In this document: positions 45,353 through 52,029 of the stretch, in pieces | How the letters are laid out: each line of letters opens with the position of its first letter | Position numbering within the stretch: position 1 is the stretch's first letter | Source: Elusimicrobium minutum | GTDB lineage: Bacteria > Elusimicrobiota > Elusimicrobia > Elusimicrobiales > UBA9959 | Direction of reading: 5' to 3' | DNA: 64,000 nt | Assembly: GCA_020723765.1 (NCBI GenBank) | Contig: DYIF01000001.1 | Location: 7,127 to 71,126, forward strand | Made by a program: the position numbers and the translations under genes | Notes under the pieces: model-generated | The model's input: the letters and a program-made list of their open reading frames with translations, nothing else | Told to the model about the DNA's origin: nothing | The model's database searches: none

Positions 45353-45525
45353 AAACTACTACCGCTCAAAAACATAAAAAATGATTATATTTTATACACT
45401 TTTTATGTGGATATCACTGTTATATGGCAACACATAACTAACGGTGAAAAAGTTCTAATCCAGCCACATATCTCACGCAAACTAAATACTAAAGATATTG
45501 ACTTAATTTATTGGTAGGCAAATTC

Positions 45526-45563
45526 CGTCCACCTACCCCTAAACCCAATGGGATTTGAACTCA
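45526..45563 (+). repeat. 38-bp perfect direct repeat, left copy (upstream of fic)
   Basis: cgtccacctacccctaaacccaatgggatttgaactca, identical to 46849-46886. Confidence 0.95.
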
Positions 45564-45574
45564 TTTAATTTGAA

Positions 45575-45600
45575 TGCAAACATAAAATGTTATATTTGCA
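45575..45600. promoter_or_regulatory. Inverted repeat TGCAAA-N14-TTTGCA upstream of fic (candidate operator)
   Basis: Read directly. A second, related palindrome lies 40 bp downstream. Confidence 0.35.
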
Positions 45601-45614
45601 GTTTTATGTTTATA

Positions 45615-45640
45615 TGCAAATATATAAAGTTGTATTTGCA
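45615..45640. promoter_or_regulatory. Inverted repeat TGCAAATA-N10-TATTTGCA upstream of fic (candidate operator)
   Basis: Read directly. It has the same half-site and the same 26-bp span as 45575-45600. Confidence 0.35.
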
Positions 45641-45670
45641 GTTTCATTAAAAATATGTTAATATAAAAGT

Positions 45671-46801
45671 ATGATAAAACTAAGTCAATTTAAAGCAGGA
45701 ACATATATACAGAGATATCAGTATAAAAGCTTTGAACCATCTTTCATAAATGACCAATGGTTAATAGACAATGAAGATATTATAATTCTTTTAAGCAGCT
45801 CTGATAAAAAATTAGGAGAGTTAAATGCATATTCTCAATTAATACCTGATGTTGATTTTTTTATTAAGATGCATATTGCAAAAGAAAGCACATTAAGTAG
45901 CCGCATAGAAGGCACACAAACTAATATTGAGGAAGCAATACAGTCAAAAAAATTTATTTCTCCAGAAAAAAGGGATGATTGGCAGGAGGTTCAAAATTAT
46001 ATAGAGGCAATGAATTATGCAATAAAAAGGCTAAATGAATTGCCATTAAGCAATAGACTTCTAAAAGAAACGCATAAGATATTACTCACAGGTGTTAGAG
46101 GCGAACATAAACAACCAGGGGAATTTAGAAAAAGTCAAAACTGGATAGGAGGAGCAACCTTAAATGATGCAGTTTTCATTCCGCCACATCATGAAAATTT
46201 AGATGAATTAATGTCTGACTTTGAAAAATTTCTTCATAATGAAAATACGAAATTACCACATTTAGTAAAAATAGCAATAGCGCATTATCAATTTGAAACA
46301 ATCCATCCTTTTTTAGATGGAAATGGTAGAATAGGAAGACTTCTTATAACACTATATCTTGTAAGCAATAATCTTTTAACAAAACCTACGCTTTATTTAT
46401 CCGACTTTTTTGAAAAAAATAAAAACTTATATTATGACAATTTAAACAATGTTAGACTGAACAATAATTTAACACAATGGATCAAATTTTTCCTTGAAGG
46501 TGTTAGAATAACATCAGAAAACAGCATAAATACATTTAGGAAGATAATTAAATTAAAATCAGAGATAGAAAATGAGTTAATAAAATTAGGAAGGAAACAA
46601 AGAATTGCAAAACAGCTTATAAATTATCTTTATGGCAAGCCTATAATAAACATAGAAGAAGCAGCCGATGTATTAAATGTAAACTTTTCTACAGCATCAA
46701 GACTAATAAGAGATATGACTAAAAACGGGATACTGATTGAAAAAACCGGCTTTGCAAGAAATAGGATTTTTGTTTTTGATAAGTATTTAAGGTTATTTTA
46801 A
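45671..46801 (+). CDS. Fic family protein (Fic_N inhibitory motif plus Fic core plus C-terminal winged-helix-like region)
   Basis: Canonical Fic motif HPFLDGNGRIGRLL. The N-terminal SSRIEG matches the (S/T)xxxE(G/N) auto-inhibition motif. Confidence 0.9.
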   Translation: MIKLSQFKAGTYIQRYQYKSFEPSFINDQWLIDNEDIIILLSSSDKKLGELNAYSQLIPDVDFFIKMHIAKESTLSSRIEGTQTNIEEAIQSKKFISPEKRDDWQEVQNYIEAMNYAIKRLNELPLSNRLLKETHKILLTGVRGEHKQPGEFRKSQNWIGGATLNDAVFIPPHHENLDELMSDFEKFLHNENTKLPHLVKIAIAHYQFETIHPFLDGNGRIGRLLITLYLVSNNLLTKPTLYLSDFFEKNKNLYYDNLNNVRLNNNLTQWIKFFLEGVRITSENSINTFRKIIKLKSEIENELIKLGRKQRIAKQLINYLYGKPIINIEEAADVLNVNFSTASRLIRDMTKNGILIEKTGFARNRIFVFDKYLRLF

Positions 46802-46848
46802 CTGAATAAATAAACTTTTAAAAATAAGAAAATCTTTAAAATCAATCA

Positions 46849-46886
46849 CGTCCACCTACCCCTAAACCCAATGGGATTTGAACTCA
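46849..46886 (+). repeat. 38-bp perfect direct repeat, right copy (downstream of fic)
   Basis: Identical to 45526-45563. Confidence 0.95.
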
Positions 46887-47036
46887 AAAAACAAAAATAG
46901 GAAGCAATATTTCCTGAAACTAAAAGGAGAAGCAGTTACTAATGTAAAAGTAAAGATGTGGCAACTAATATTTATTTCTTTATAGCTTTAGCGAAAAAGA
47001 ATCAGCGCAAGAATGTATTGGTTGAAGAAAAGAAAA

Positions 47037-48125
47037 CTATAATTTTTTCTCCACAAATTTTATACCATATCTATAGCAAAAATTTTTAAGCTCCTTTGGG
47101 ATATTCCAAGCTACTAAAAATGATTCCACATTTTTTGAGTCTATGTTTTCTTTTATTTCCATGCACTTTAAAACTTTATACTTCAGCGCTTGATATATTC
47201 CAGGATTAGGATCTATAGTTTCAATTTCAACAACAATATATTTATTTGATTTCATTTCAAAAAGCAAATCCGCCGTATCACCAGAAGGGAAAGTATATTC
47301 CATTTGTTTATTCTTTATTGTTTTAGGATCAATACCTATTTCTTTGGGATTGTTAAAAATCCACTCTTTTAATTTTTTATGGTCTTTACCTTCTCCACCT
47401 ATTCCATATTTTCTTGTCAAATATATATGCTTTATACTATCTTTACCATCTCTCATCCTATAGCCAGATGGTTTCGTTATTTTAATGTTTCCAATTATAT
47501 TATCAATAACTTTCTTAATTTCTTCATCCTGTGTGATTTTTCTAATATCATATAAAACTTGATTAACTTGTTCATCACTTAAATATCTCACGAGGCCAGT
47601 ACCCCATTTGGCTCCACCTTTTTTATTTTTATAATAGTTCCAGAAATACAGACCTTTAGCCTCATCTAAAGGAAGTCTTACCCTTACTTTAGGATTTGCA
47701 TATATAGTTGTTGGATATTCTTCATCATCATTTTCAACTGCGCTAATCTTAAAAAAACCTATAATTTTACGGTCTATTTCTTCATCATCAGGGAATCTTG
47801 TTGTGAGTATTGCATATTTATTTTTAACGTTTTTTGATAAATGAATATTTACACCTTTCCTTTTGCCTGTATGATAAGAACCGGCCCCATACTCCCATTC
47901 AACAAATAAAGCACTTTCATAACAAGGATACTCAGGTGGTTTTCCCTTAAAGCCCTTATCATAATATTTTCTACAACCACAATCTTCATTGCTACACCAT
48001 ACTCTTTTATTATCTATATTCCACTTAATAATATCTTCACTGCATGTCCCACTAAAGCCAACCAATTCATCCTCACCACCGTTATTATACGTACATTTTA
48101 TAGCAATATTCGCTGTTTCATCCAT
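47037..48125 (-). CDS. Two-domain protein: unassigned Cys-rich N-terminal region plus NucS/RecB-like PD-(D/E)xK-type C-terminal domain
   Basis: C-terminus: HKKLKEWIFNNPKEIGI...GDTADLLFE...YIVVEIET...YQALKY (D...ExE in place of ExK...QxxxY). N-terminus: CSNEDCGCRKYY and YPCYES Cys cluster. The GGGAGG SD overlaps the upstream stop, and the gap to the upstream gene is 9 bp. Confidence 0.55.
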   Translation of the reverse strand: MDETANIAIKCTYNNGGEDELVGFSGTCSEDIIKWNIDNKRVWCSNEDCGCRKYYDKGFKGKPPEYPCYESALFVEWEYGAGSYHTGKRKGVNIHLSKNVKNKYAILTTRFPDDEEIDRKIIGFFKISAVENDDEEYPTTIYANPKVRVRLPLDEAKGLYFWNYYKNKKGGAKWGTGLVRYLSDEQVNQVLYDIRKITQDEEIKKVIDNIIGNIKITKPSGYRMRDGKDSIKHIYLTRKYGIGGEGKDHKKLKEWIFNNPKEIGIDPKTIKNKQMEYTFPSGDTADLLFEMKSNKYIVVEIETIDPNPGIYQALKYKVLKCMEIKENIDSKNVESFLVAWNIPKELKNFCYRYGIKFVEKKL

Positions 48126-48134
48126 TATACCTCC

Positions 48135-48908
48135 CTACGATAAATCAATAATACACTTACACTTAGGATAATTAGAACAGCCCCAGAATTTTTTGCCAGC
48201 ATGTTCCCCTTGTTTTGCAACCCTCAATACCATAGGAGCATGACAATTCGGGCATAATATAACGTTTTTATCAGTATTTTTTTGAGTGTTTTCTGATTGT
48301 ATCTTATTTTTTGTCGAGTCTATTAAGTTAACTAATTTCTCCCTATTAATTAACTCAATTGGTTTTCCATAAGCAAATTCTTTTGCTGGTTCAGTAAAAT
48401 CTCCAGAAGTTATAACAACCGCTTTGCTTGCTTTTTCATCAACCATAAGTCCATATATTTCCCTTATAACTTTAACATCAACTTTATACGCTTTCCAGTG
48501 TTTACATTGAATAATTACTTTTTCATTTTCTTTTTTGGCAATTAAATCAATTCCACCATCAGCAGAATTATATCCCGTATGAATAACTTCATATCCCTTT
48601 TCCCTGTAATATGTCTCAATAATATCCTCAAATTCCTTCCATGATAGTTTTTTAATATCTTCTATTGACTTAGTGTTTTTAAGTAAGTTTTTATTTAGCA
48701 ATGTTCTTAAAGCTGACAATATACCAGCAATTAATAAAAAAATTGAAAATATTTTTAAAAAAGTTGAAATAACAGGACCTACAGATATTAATCCTGTATT
48801 TATGTTTTTAACAAAAAAGCTTAATATATATAAAACAACGCCAATAACAATTGTAATTTGCCATGGTGTTTCAAAAACTATAGTTTCAAAAAAACTTTTA
48901 TTCCTCAT
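48135..48908 (-). CDS. Membrane-anchored Mrr-type restriction endonuclease domain protein with a C-terminal topoisomerase-type zinc ribbon
   Basis: Two N-terminal TM helices. Mrr_cat-like core: WKEFEDIIETYYREKGYEV...ADGGIDLIAKKENEKVIIQCKHW...VITSGDFT. Zinc ribbon: CPNCHAPMVLR...FWGCSNYPKC. Confidence 0.75.
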   Translation of the reverse strand: MRNKSFFETIVFETPWQITIVIGVVLYILSFFVKNINTGLISVGPVISTFLKIFSIFLLIAGILSALRTLLNKNLLKNTKSIEDIKKLSWKEFEDIIETYYREKGYEVIHTGYNSADGGIDLIAKKENEKVIIQCKHWKAYKVDVKVIREIYGLMVDEKASKAVVITSGDFTEPAKEFAYGKPIELINREKLVNLIDSTKNKIQSENTQKNTDKNVILCPNCHAPMVLRVAKQGEHAGKKFWGCSNYPKCKCIIDLS

Positions 48909-49047
48909 AAAAACCTCTTTAAAACATTTTACAAATTTATATAAAATTTATTCTTAAATTTTATTAGCAAAAATTACCTATATTTTATAGCCATTTTTCC
49001 TTCCAGAAACGCCTTGTTTCCGCAAATTTCCTTGTAACAGGGAATAT

Positions 49048-49716
49048 TTAATTGTTATTTATTATTTTATCTAACTCAAACAAAAGTATTCTAAAGTTTG
49101 ATTTATTATAATAACTTCTTTTATCTGCCGGAAGTAATGAAGATAATTTGACTTTATAATCATTTATTTTTAGATTTAAGATTTTATTTTTTATTTTTTC
49201 AGCAGTGTTTTTGTCTACATTTAATTTTACCCCTCTCTTAATTAAAAACTCAATATCATAAGCATCTCTAATCTCACCTCTATCAAGAAAAGCATTTATT
49301 TTTTCAACCATCATATCTTCAAGCGATATTGCACTTAAAATTATTTGAATATTGCTATTAAGAGAATATGCTATAGTTTTAATTGGTTTTATTTTCTTTT
49401 GCTCTTTCCTTATTTCAATTTTTAACGTTCTTGGATAATTCCTACTTTTAAATTCAAACAACATTGTAAAATGCTTATTAAACACATCTTTTACCATATA
49501 ATTGTCATATATTACCTTTTTTATTCTATTAAAAACCTCATTTTCCTCTTTTTTATCTTTCAACCAGAAATCTAAATCAACAGAATATCTATCTAATCCA
49601 TAACATAATCTCAGCATTGTTCCACCAACAAATATTAATTTTGGCAATACTTTAGCATTATATAGTTTTTCTAAAATTTCCATTTCAAACTGCTCGTGTT
49701 TTATCAAATCTTGCAT
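49048..49716 (-). CDS. AbiEii/AbiGii family nucleotidyltransferase toxin (type IV TA / abortive infection)
   Basis: FVGGTMLRLCYGLDRYSVDLDFW matches the AbiEii (DUF1814) NTase signature. It overlaps the upstream antitoxin-like gene by 13 bp. Confidence 0.75.
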   Translation of the reverse strand: MQDLIKHEQFEMEILEKLYNAKVLPKLIFVGGTMLRLCYGLDRYSVDLDFWLKDKKEENEVFNRIKKVIYDNYMVKDVFNKHFTMLFEFKSRNYPRTLKIEIRKEQKKIKPIKTIAYSLNSNIQIILSAISLEDMMVEKINAFLDRGEIRDAYDIEFLIKRGVKLNVDKNTAEKIKNKILNLKINDYKVKLSSLLPADKRSYYNKSNFRILLFELDKIINNN

Positions 49717-50300
49717 ATTCTTTTAACAACCTCTATTGTTTTTTGCGGATATTTTTTTGCAATTTTAAATATTAAACTTTTATCAAGTTTTTTGATATCA
49801 ATTGAGCTTAAATCTAATGAATATTTGCCAAACGAATAAAGATAAATGGCATCTATAAAAGCCTTCTCTTTTTCCGCTATAAAATAATTATCTTTTTTTA
49901 AAAAACCATTAAAAAATTCTCCCTTAACTTTATAAAACTTAAAATTTTTATCTTTTATTTCATAGTTTTTAGTAGAAAGAATCGTTATAGATTCAAACCT
50001 ATCTTGCGGGACTTGCGTTGTTACCCCATAATAAGAAAGAGCGGTTAATAAAGAAATATATGAAGGAACCCTTAGGATAGAAGATATAGCAAAGAAATCC
50101 TCTTCTTTGTTTAAACCCCATCTTTGCTCAAAAGAATAACAATTCTTTTTTAATTTTATAAATATTTCCTTTTTTGACTGTCTTGTTACAAAAACCCTTG
50201 CAGATTCAATACTTATATCCAAAACTTTTGCGACATCTTCAGTAAAAAAATATGGTTTATTATACAAAACAGATAGTTTGATTAAATTTTCGCTAAACAT
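49704..50300 (-). CDS. AbiEi-like antitoxin / transcriptional regulator
   Basis: ~200 aa with an N-terminal wHTH-like segment (FTEDVAKVLDISIESARVFVTRQSKKEIFIKL). It lies directly upstream of, and overlaps, the AbiEii gene. The call rests on size, position and pairing. Confidence 0.65.
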   Translation of the reverse strand: MFSENLIKLSVLYNKPYFFTEDVAKVLDISIESARVFVTRQSKKEIFIKLKKNCYSFEQRWGLNKEEDFFAISSILRVPSYISLLTALSYYGVTTQVPQDRFESITILSTKNYEIKDKNFKFYKVKGEFFNGFLKKDNYFIAEKEKAFIDAIYLYSFGKYSLDLSSIDIKKLDKSLIFKIAKKYPQKTIEVVKRICKI

Positions 50301-50535
50301 ACTAAATTAACACTAATGATAATTTAATATATTTTGTATTAGAAGTCAATATTTACAAAGATTAATTTAAAAGGATTTCTAATTTATAAATTTTGCAAGT
50401 TGAACTTTCAAATTGTATAAGTTTTTTAATTAAATTTTCTAACATTAAGATTATTAGTTTGTGTTTAAATTTTTTACCAATACTAAAAATTATCACAAAT
50501 AATTTGACTTTATTATAAAAACTATAATAAAATTA

Positions 50536-51828: not shown

Positions 51829-52029
51829 ATGGAATGCAAATCCGCTCGCAATCTTTCCAACTGCTCATGCACATACGAACCCTGTTCGAGAAAAGGCATT
51901 TGTTGCCAGTGCATAGAATATCACAAAAGAAACGGCGAACTGCCGGGATGTTTTTTCTCGAAAAAAGGCGAAGCCACTTACGATAGAAGCATTGAAAATT
52001 TTATAAGAGATTATAACGAAAACAGATAG
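51829..52029 (+). CDS. Small Cys-rich protein (DUF6485-like)
   Basis: 66 aa with 8 Cys (CSCTYEPCSRKGICCQCIEYH...GCFF). GGAGG SD. First gene with core-like composition after the island. Confidence 0.6.
   Translation: MECKSARNLSNCSCTYEPCSRKGICCQCIEYHKRNGELPGCFFSKKGEATYDRSIENFIRDYNENR

Follow-up and report, generated by a model that had tools for sequence, protein, structure and literature searches.

Two probably independent nuclease genes in a variable defence hot spot of Elusimicrobium minutum, one of them a predicted modification-dependent endonuclease of an unnamed family

We analyzed a stretch of 64,000 nucleotides from Elusimicrobium minutum (GenBank assembly GCA_020723765.1, contig DYIF01000001.1, positions 7,127 to 71,126 of the forward strand; hereinafter the window), in which two closely spaced minus-strand genes, gene 1 and gene 2, are situated in a defence island next to an AbiE pair (Table 1). 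A preliminary description of this DNA, whose positions, lengths and strand for the open reading frames (ORFs) and whose quoted peptide strings are all present as claimed, had proposed that the two genes constitute a coupled defence module. Comparative analysis does not bear this out. We favor instead, with a probability of roughly 0.6, a reading in which they encode two independent single-gene nucleases that are co-transcribed here in a variable defence hot spot, with the gene 2 product predicted to be a modification-dependent enzyme. Within this reading the independence of the two genes from each other is held with strong confidence, and the predicted modification-dependent mechanism of gene 2 is given about an even chance.

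The evidence for independence comes in the first place from the neighborhoods of gene 2. Scans of genomes and metagenomes, together with exact-protein look-ups, furnished 112 non-self gene 2 loci that form 87 clusters at 95% identity, and a neighbor of the gene 1 type was recovered in none of these 112 loci and in none of the 87 clusters. With gene 1 as the query, tblastn gave no match in the first 24 of the gene 2 loci, and a hidden Markov model (HMM) of gene 1, built from 120 homologs and run across all gene 2 loci, recovered only two matches beyond the self copies. One of these (in L111) is a canonical Mrr with a winged-helix N-terminus, located two genes from gene 2 and not adjacent to it, while the other (in L003) is a weak match to an ORF on the opposite strand. 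As this HMM is specific, having missed a gene with fused DUF8426 and Mrr_cat domains in an archaeal locus (L031, see below), the immediate neighbors of gene 2 were also scanned against Pfam. No recurrent Pfam family, Mrr_cat included, was detected among 74 upstream and 67 downstream neighbors: the commonest upstream families, namely UvrD-helicase domains and two AAA families, are each seen in just 3 of the 74, and every downstream family occurs at most once. The neighbors are scattered over integrases, relaxases, methyltransferases, GmrSD, AIPR, AbiJ, HepT, PIN and Nmad3 proteins, along with some housekeeping genes. Similarly, all-against-all clustering of the neighboring ORFs yielded only antisense shadows of gene 2. 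The combination of gene 1 with gene 2 was seen only in 100%-identical copies (L037-L042) from five samples, which belong to the window's own lineage.

A corresponding picture is obtained from the side of gene 1. Downstream of its homologs with 83, 67, 66 and 64% identity lie unrelated genes, which code for an unknown protein of 305 aa together with a 162-aa protein, a RusA-like protein, an unknown protein of 242 aa, and a secreted-looking protein of 319 aa. More distant homologs precede a gene with NERD and zinc-ribbon domains, a 165-aa gene or a 112-aa gene. The proteins encoded downstream of eight gene 1 homologs displayed no similarity to one another or to gene 2. Thus, homologs of the two genes are not syntenic elsewhere, either when approached from the 87 gene 2 clusters or from the genes that follow gene 1, and the proposal of a coupled module is not upheld.

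Comparison with related contigs further suggests how single genes are exchanged at this position. In blastn searches one such contig (L036) aligned with the window in three collinear blocks. The first covers the AAA_14-DUF4143 gene (80% identity, window 51666-50466), the second gene 1 and the sequence preceding it (85% identity, 49036-48140), and the third the 100 bp directly after the gene 2 stop codon (83% identity, 47032-46934); gene 2 itself is replaced there by two other genes. In a second contig (L034) the same slot is occupied by a RusA-like gene, enclosed by a gene 1 block (49038-48141) and a downstream block (47035-47001). In both cases the homology ends at the gene 1 stop and resumes 2-5 bp after the gene 2 stop, at TTTTCTTCAACCAATA, and the ends of homology to L036, L034, L033 and L126 all fall within window positions 48140-48147. 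The sequence at TTTTCTTCAACCAATA is, in the relatives, the 3' end of an intact convergent gene, whereas tblastn and frame translations reveal stops and frameshifts in the window's copy. Given that the homology breaks exactly at the edges of gene 2, this gene, together with its own ribosome-binding site, can be regarded as exchangeable hot-spot cargo, and the locus provides a clean example of a hot spot that exchanges single genes precisely between the stop codon of a conserved gene and a convergent gene. The AbiE pair (about 1.43 kb, window 49037-50465) is likewise absent in L036, where window position 50466 is joined to 49036; its absence at this position indicates that AbiE is a separate insertion and not one unit with genes 1 and 2. 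In L036 only 43 bp of non-homologous sequence (L036 1320-1363) separate gene 1 from the AAA_14-DUF4143 gene, and these two neighbors are divergently oriented.

In the window genes 1 and 2 very probably share one transcript, given their 9-bp spacing and the lack of a promoter or terminator between them in a consensus scan, which overall performed no better than on shuffled sequence. The junction reads ...TCG TAG GGAGGTATA ATG, and the first G of the Shine-Dalgarno sequence GGGAGG is the last base of the gene 1 stop codon TAG, in agreement with the overlap reported earlier.

Fold and conservation show that gene 2 encodes a two-domain protein with a NucS-like nuclease that bears conserved catalytic-type residues. 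None of the families in Pfam, PADLOC or NCBIfam was matched by the protein above threshold, and for PADLOC this held even at E up to 0.1. Its matches to NCBIfam NucS (16.6 bits against a cut-off of 216) and to Pfam NucS_C (13.6 bits against 24) are both sub-threshold, and sub-threshold matches to the latter were seen in 14 of 22 members. Searches recovered 151 homologs (E up to 1e-3), nearly all of about 360 aa, with a patchy distribution over many bacterial phyla and several archaeal lineages; among the homologs listed the only precomputed Pfam domain was DUF8426, on a single fusion. The AlphaFold2 model computed from a 43-sequence alignment has a mean pLDDT of 92.4, and its C-terminal third matches NucS/EndoMS in Foldseek (2vld, E 6.6e-6; 5gkj, E 2.7e-5; probability 1.0), as well as the nuclease domains of Card1 and Can2. 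The NucS-like layout that had been perceived in the sequence is thus supported by model and fold comparison alike.

The motif of this nuclease domain comprises E245, D283/D286, E300-x-E302 and Q312-xx-K315-Y316, with each of these residues kept in at least 162 of 167 full-length members; H249 and K253 are also near-invariant in this set. The domain resembles NucS/EndoMS in its fold and in the motif order D...(E)x(K)...QxxxY, and its spacing of 14 residues from D to E is that of the P. abyssi protein as well. It departs from NucS in scoring below the NucS_C cut-off, in the fold of the accompanying N-terminal domain, in its patchy and mobile distribution, and in having Glu302 in place of Lys. 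On the basis of motif spacing, Glu302 presumably occupies the position of the catalytic Lys of NucS, and the Lys found at position 302 in 3 of the 167 members fits its being the canonical Lys position. The preliminary description had rightly noticed a Glu where the Lys was expected; its suggestion of a possibly catalytically altered nuclease is probably wrong, as ExE is the norm of the family, with Glu at this position in 162 of 167 members. Because the ExE signature is so strictly conserved, an active variant site is favored over a degenerate one, and the alignment points to a predicted active site that has not decayed. A precedent is provided by BamHI, with the active site D94, E111 and E113, which has a Glu at the canonical Lys position and is still catalytically active; this Glu is shared with gene 2 although the two proteins have no sequence relationship. 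The Glu of gene 2 would accordingly be an active-site variant of the BamHI type. The invariant K315, on the helix that follows, may supply the positive charge.

The N-terminal domain of gene 2 contains the cysteine cluster and the PUA-reminiscent strand pattern that had been noted before; the cluster is borne out, and the pattern agrees with weak fold matches. C28, C44, C51 and C68 are invariant, the domain adopts a beta-barrel in the model, and W77, W162, W174 and Y181 are near-invariant among the 167 full-length members. When its 215 residues were modelled alone the pLDDT was 92.8. The top 14 fold matches in the PDB are all YTH, ASCH or EVE domains, recovered as weak matches (E 5e-3 to 0.2, TM 0.3-0.4); the best is the N-terminal domain of the T. 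gammatolerans McrB (6p0f, E 5e-3, probability 0.89), and the others include YTHDF1, YTHDF2, a Zymomonas ASCH protein and the EVE proteins 2gbs and 1zce. An EVE protein also ranked third in a library of viral structures. In Pfam, gene 2 showed no match to EVE, YTH, ASCH or SRA. Searches of the sequences of solved structures with gene 2 and with the profiles of its N- and C-terminal domains recovered nothing meaningful, a PHROGs search with gene 2 gave nothing useful, and a scan of viral contigs found no relatives of gene 2.

The same N-terminal domain occurs in several settings. A profile search with it recovered 676 representative clusters (E up to 1e-3), which display three main architectures: first, the fusion to the NucS-like nuclease (about 360 aa); second, the domain alone (210-265 aa); and third, a version preceded by an N-terminal segment of about 100 residues (335-360 aa), in which the four cysteines are also invariant. 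Of the 68 members of this version (set A6, e.g. P0276), 7 have the segment recognized by Pfam as a PcrA/UvrD tudor domain. The tudor-like domain of UvrD and PcrA contacts RNA polymerase, and this fusion hints at a link of the N-terminal domain to RNA polymerase or transcription. Stand-alone copies adjoin genes for GmrSD_N, Nmad3, DUF499 and GIY-YIG/DUF4357 proteins. In addition, a 284-aa "malate synthase" of Priestia megaterium plasmids (L123 3653-4507) matches residues 70-225 of gene 2, and is probably a misannotated stand-alone or fused copy of the domain. A broader proposal, which we put forward only tentatively and below even odds, is that the four-cysteine domain, which lacks a Pfam model and is employed in at least three architectures, defines a large unnamed superfamily of nucleic-acid modification sensors, with gene 2 representing a new single-chain class of type IV enzymes that has an ExE site and a new specificity.

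The contexts in which gene 2 and its parts are found show it to be autonomous from gene 1 and to reside in mobile, conflict-type settings. Searched by itself, its C-terminal domain matches hypothetical proteins encoded next to Abi genes on a plasmid of Chryseobacterium. It also matches a protein from a Rhizobium plasmid whose gene is flanked by those of a methyltransferase and of a restriction endonuclease of the BPTD_3080 family. One close homolog lies between portal and capsid-protease genes on a phage-like contig, another directly follows a gene with a precomputed NmeDI_C match and a sub-threshold EVE match, and yet another is found in an archaeal defence island (L031) along with NERD, TIR and RE_MamI genes. 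Certain full-length homologs have an additional N-terminal DUF8426 domain, which also heads the neighboring Mrr_cat gene in L031. Among the longer forms, four proteins of 525-548 aa (P0020, P0031, P0015 and P0262) display extra N-terminal domains, DUF8426 or other, and one such extra segment, starting AVLAWGSLVWDP, resembles gamma-glutamylcyclotransferase/AIG2-like proteins. The idea that such extensions (DUF8426) might be membrane anchors comparable to that of gene 1 was considered and rejected, as their sequences are soluble and barrel-like.

These observations allow a functional mechanism to be proposed for gene 2, as a modular type IV-like restriction endonuclease that would work alone. 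Its N-terminal domain, stabilized by a putative four-cysteine metal site (probably zinc), could read a modified or non-self base, by analogy with YTH, EVE and ASCH domains. Binding by this domain might then position or activate the nuclease, which would probably operate as a dimer by analogy with NucS and would cut the bound DNA. The predicted target is foreign DNA with a modification that is absent from the host.

Modular restriction enzymes that combine a PUA-type sensor with a nuclease for modification-dependent action are already known. The closest in design is Madara (PDC-S11), a single protein in which a NucS-like nuclease at the N-terminus is joined to an EVE-like domain at the C-terminus, and which restricts T4 with glucosyl-hmC and loses its defence activity upon mutation of the catalytic site (10.64898/2026.09.05.749240). 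Like gene 2 it unites a NucS-like PD-(D/E)xK nuclease and a distant EVE/PUA-like putative sensor in one polypeptide, encoded by a stand-alone gene in defence islands. In Madara, though, the nuclease comes first, whereas in gene 2 the sensor does, and gene 2 further differs in the four-cysteine cluster of its putative sensor, which belongs to no named family, and in its ExE active site. The lack of any PADLOC match places gene 2 outside Madara/PDC-S11 by sequence. Comparable in principle are sensor-nuclease fusions of the PUA superfamily such as TspA15I and VcaM4I (EVE-HNH), which have been characterized as modification-dependent enzymes (Lutz et al. 2019, PMC6765204), and END-Mag, a fusion of a NucS-like domain to iEndoIII that has been cloned for testing (PMC12191111). 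These share with the design predicted for gene 2 the coupling of a modified-base sensor to a nuclease without a partner methyltransferase; gene 2 has a sensor of a different family, and its nuclease is distinct from that of the HNH enzymes. The YTH-like N-terminal domain of the T. gammatolerans McrB, the best fold match of the gene 2 sensor, is a reader of modified DNA that forms part of a type IV restriction machine. The two are only weakly similar (TM 0.34-0.40, rmsd about 10 Å), and while that McrB works with a GTPase and McrC, gene 2 carries its own nuclease.

Two other functions for gene 2 have to be weighed against the modification-dependent one. It might be a DNA-repair endonuclease of the NucS type, with the N-terminal domain directing it to damaged or mismatched bases. 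This would accord with the closest solved relatives of its nuclease being the repair enzymes NucS/EndoMS, with the housekeeping neighbors of some homologs and with the large branch of the N-terminal domain that is fused to the PcrA/UvrD tudor-like domain. However, the family is patchy across bacterial and archaeal phyla, behaves as swappable hot-spot cargo, and has members in defence islands as well as on a phage-like contig, its N-terminal domain is found beside GmrSD and Nmad3 genes, and the protein is devoid of the N-terminal domain of NucS. NucS itself has a PCNA-binding tail. We therefore regard a role in repair as unlikely. Alternatively, gene 2 could be an abortive-infection effector, in which recognition of a small molecule or phage protein by the N-terminal domain would trigger unspecific degradation of DNA or RNA by the nuclease. 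The NucS-like nuclease domains of Card1 and Can2 are indeed ligand-activated effectors, and the island otherwise contains Abi and toxin-type genes (AbiE and SoFic). Yet the N-terminal domain is not CARF- or SAVED-like, its fold matches being solely to readers of nucleic-acid bases, and its genomic associates are those of nucleotide modification and type IV restriction, which renders this function quite unlikely.

In contrast to gene 2, gene 1 is a member of a very common, already annotated and solitary family. In Pfam it matches Mrr_cat (PF04471, E 2.5e-34, 118.3 bits against a cut-off of 21) and Zn_ribbon_Top1 (E 1.2e-10). Kyte-Doolittle windows of 19 residues exceed a score of 1.6 in two places, residues 10-20 and 39-54, which gives hydrophobic stretches at about residues 14-34 and 40-68. 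Two such N-terminal hydrophobic segments are also present in 98 of 120 homologs. Across these 120 homologs E94, D121 and Q134-C-K136 are invariant, so that the catalytic residues of the D...(Q/E)xK type are present, as are C219, C222, C244 and C250 of the ribbon. The predicted membrane hairpin, the nuclease core and the ribbon described earlier therefore stand, with the correction that the second half of the ribbon is C244-x5-C250 and not CxxxxC. Gene 1 shares with canonical Mrr, which joins an Mrr_N winged helix to Mrr_cat, the catalytic domain with its D...QxK signature; it has no match to Mrr_N, and for this reason it is not a canonical Mrr, having a hydrophobic two-helix hairpin at the N-terminus instead, and a Top1-type zinc ribbon besides. 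PADLOC matches (the nuclease part of ZorD, PDC-S02 and mREase_IV) are limited to the catalytic core. More than 400 homolog clusters possess the gene 1 architecture and are labelled "restriction endonuclease" or "restriction system protein" in their sources, and gene 1 matches 520 plasmid records, 280 of which are conjugative plasmids. With the predicted hairpin anchored in the inner membrane, the catalytic and DNA-binding parts of gene 1 would lie on the cytoplasmic side. Gene 1 might independently attack DNA at the membrane.

All eight gene 1 loci examined from metagenomes and metagenome-assembled genomes have a co-oriented gene 4-77 bp downstream. From these one could envisage gene 1 as a conserved anchor that works with interchangeable downstream effector cassettes, gene 2 being one option. 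Some of the downstream genes look like nucleases (gene 2, the RusA-like gene, and the gene with NERD and Zn_ribbon_Top1), the second gene downstream in L036 has a weak PDDEXK_5 match, and in L033 an insert between housekeeping operons consists of just two genes, gene 1 and an unknown one. However, the downstream proteins share no detectable similarity, one of them is secreted-looking and another resembles a spurious ORF, and no member of the gene 2 family depends on gene 1. Furthermore, in three of the four plasmid copies inspected the downstream gene is convergent, leaving gene 1 solitary there; these copies contradict, and led us to reject, the notion that gene 1 always has a downstream partner. 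We hence deem such an anchor role very unlikely. Least probable of all, and already largely refuted by the missing synteny, is an obligate two-component system of a membrane Mrr nuclease and a reader-like partner with an altered or inactive nuclease: the 9-bp spacing, the Shine-Dalgarno sequence at the stop codon, the lack of a terminator and the nuclease-type nature of both proteins in a defence island would suit it, but the pair was seen only in identical copies of one lineage (L037-L042), a neighbor of the gene 1 type is missing from all 87 independent clusters of gene 2, close gene 1 homologs precede other genes, the cassette boundaries coincide with the gene 2 edges, and strict conservation of its catalytic residues argues against gene 2 being a decayed nuclease.

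Certain points do weigh against the favored reading of two independent nucleases with a modification-dependent gene 2. The co-oriented downstream gene at all eight of the above gene 1 loci is one of them. Another is that the two genes are co-expressed here, so that a functional interaction between them in Elusimicrobium minutum is compatible with all that comparison alone can offer. With regard to the sensor, the PUA-like fold matches are weak, with a best E of 5e-3 and large rmsd, and the profile of the domain has no sequence-profile match among solved structures. Finally, it is the conservation of the four cysteines that suggests metal binding.

The wider setting agrees with the CpG-poor defence island, with Fic and AAA-DUF4143 genes, that had been described. 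Across 44-50 kb of the window the observed/expected CpG ratio is 0.49-0.70, against 1.3-1.9 in the backbone, and the GC content is 0.26-0.30 against about 0.35. The neighbors upstream of gene 1 constitute an AbiE pair, in which both the AbiEi antitoxin (PADLOC, 1.2e-22) and the AbiEii nucleotidyltransferase toxin (PADLOC, 1.3e-88; Pfam, 1.7e-21) are present. Gene 1 is co-oriented with this pair and downstream of it, with a gap of 139 bp between the end of AbiEii at 49048 and the start of gene 1 at 48908, as previously stated. The island also includes SoFic (PADLOC, 1.1e-120) and the AAA_14-DUF4143 gene, which is the PADLOC candidate PDC-S01 (1.8e-56). An Rfam scan gave no match in the island, and no flanking tRNA was found.

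Several further elements were noticed in this region. SoFic (45671-46801) is flanked by a 43-nt direct repeat (45521-45563 and 46844-46886, 95% identical) that is similar to the 3' end of a tRNA read on the minus strand. This arrangement suggests a further discrete inserted cassette, formed by SoFic, or att-like boundaries around it. Just 5' of the Fic start codon there are two tandem near-palindromic copies of 39 nt (45569-45647, TGCAAA...TTTGCA) that look like an operator. The intergenic stretch that precedes SoFic contains an element of about 115 bp (45370-45486), which is found twice in L034 (3724-3838 and 6798-6914) with about 78% identity and may be a small repeat or mobile element tied to the hot spot. 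At the edge of the island, just before a RidA-family gene (Ribonuc_L-PSP), a cysteine-rich ORF of 66 aa (51829-52029) matches DUF6485 (E 1e-9).

Table 1. Coordinates of the two genes, their predicted domains and the adjoining features in the window
Feature	Position	Strand	Basis and remarks
Gene 1	48135..48908	minus	ORF, 257 aa; membrane-anchored Mrr_cat nuclease with C-terminal Top1-type zinc ribbon
Gene 1, predicted hairpin of two transmembrane helices	48705..48863	minus	about residues 16-34 and 44-68; Kyte-Doolittle
Gene 1, Mrr_cat PD-(D/E)xK core	48321..48656	minus	residues 85-196; Pfam
Gene 1, Zn_ribbon_Top1	48150..48260	minus	residues 217-253; Pfam
Intergenic junction GGAGGTATA	48126..48134	minus	9 bp with the gene 2 Shine-Dalgarno sequence; upstream cassette boundary
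Gene 2	47037..48125	minus	ORF, 362 aa; unnamed family with members of about 360 aa; predicted to be a modification-dependent endonuclease that acts alone
Gene 2, N-terminal domain	47481..48125	minus	residues 1-215; putative zinc-stabilized PUA-like sensor; model, fold matches, conservation
Gene 2, C-terminal NucS/RecB-like PD-(D/E)xK nuclease	47037..47432	minus	residues 232-362; Foldseek, conservation
Decayed remnant, 3' end of convergent gene	46859..47047	plus	blastn, tblastn; downstream slot boundary
AbiEi/AbiEii pair (context only)	49048..50300	minus	PADLOC

Thus, in conclusion, the proposed two-gene system does not stand, and there is accordingly no reason to clone and test genes 1 and 2 as a unit. 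Gene 2 alone, on the other hand, is a good experimental candidate, as it represents a widespread, unannotated family in bacteria, archaea and a phage-like contig, with a confidently modelled but unassigned putative sensor and a type of nuclease for which a role in modification-dependent defence was recently demonstrated. If the prediction is true it would fill a gap in defence annotation, as PADLOC, Pfam and NCBIfam all miss this gene, and, should the specificity of its sensor prove to be new, the tools for the detection of modified bases would gain a further reader domain.

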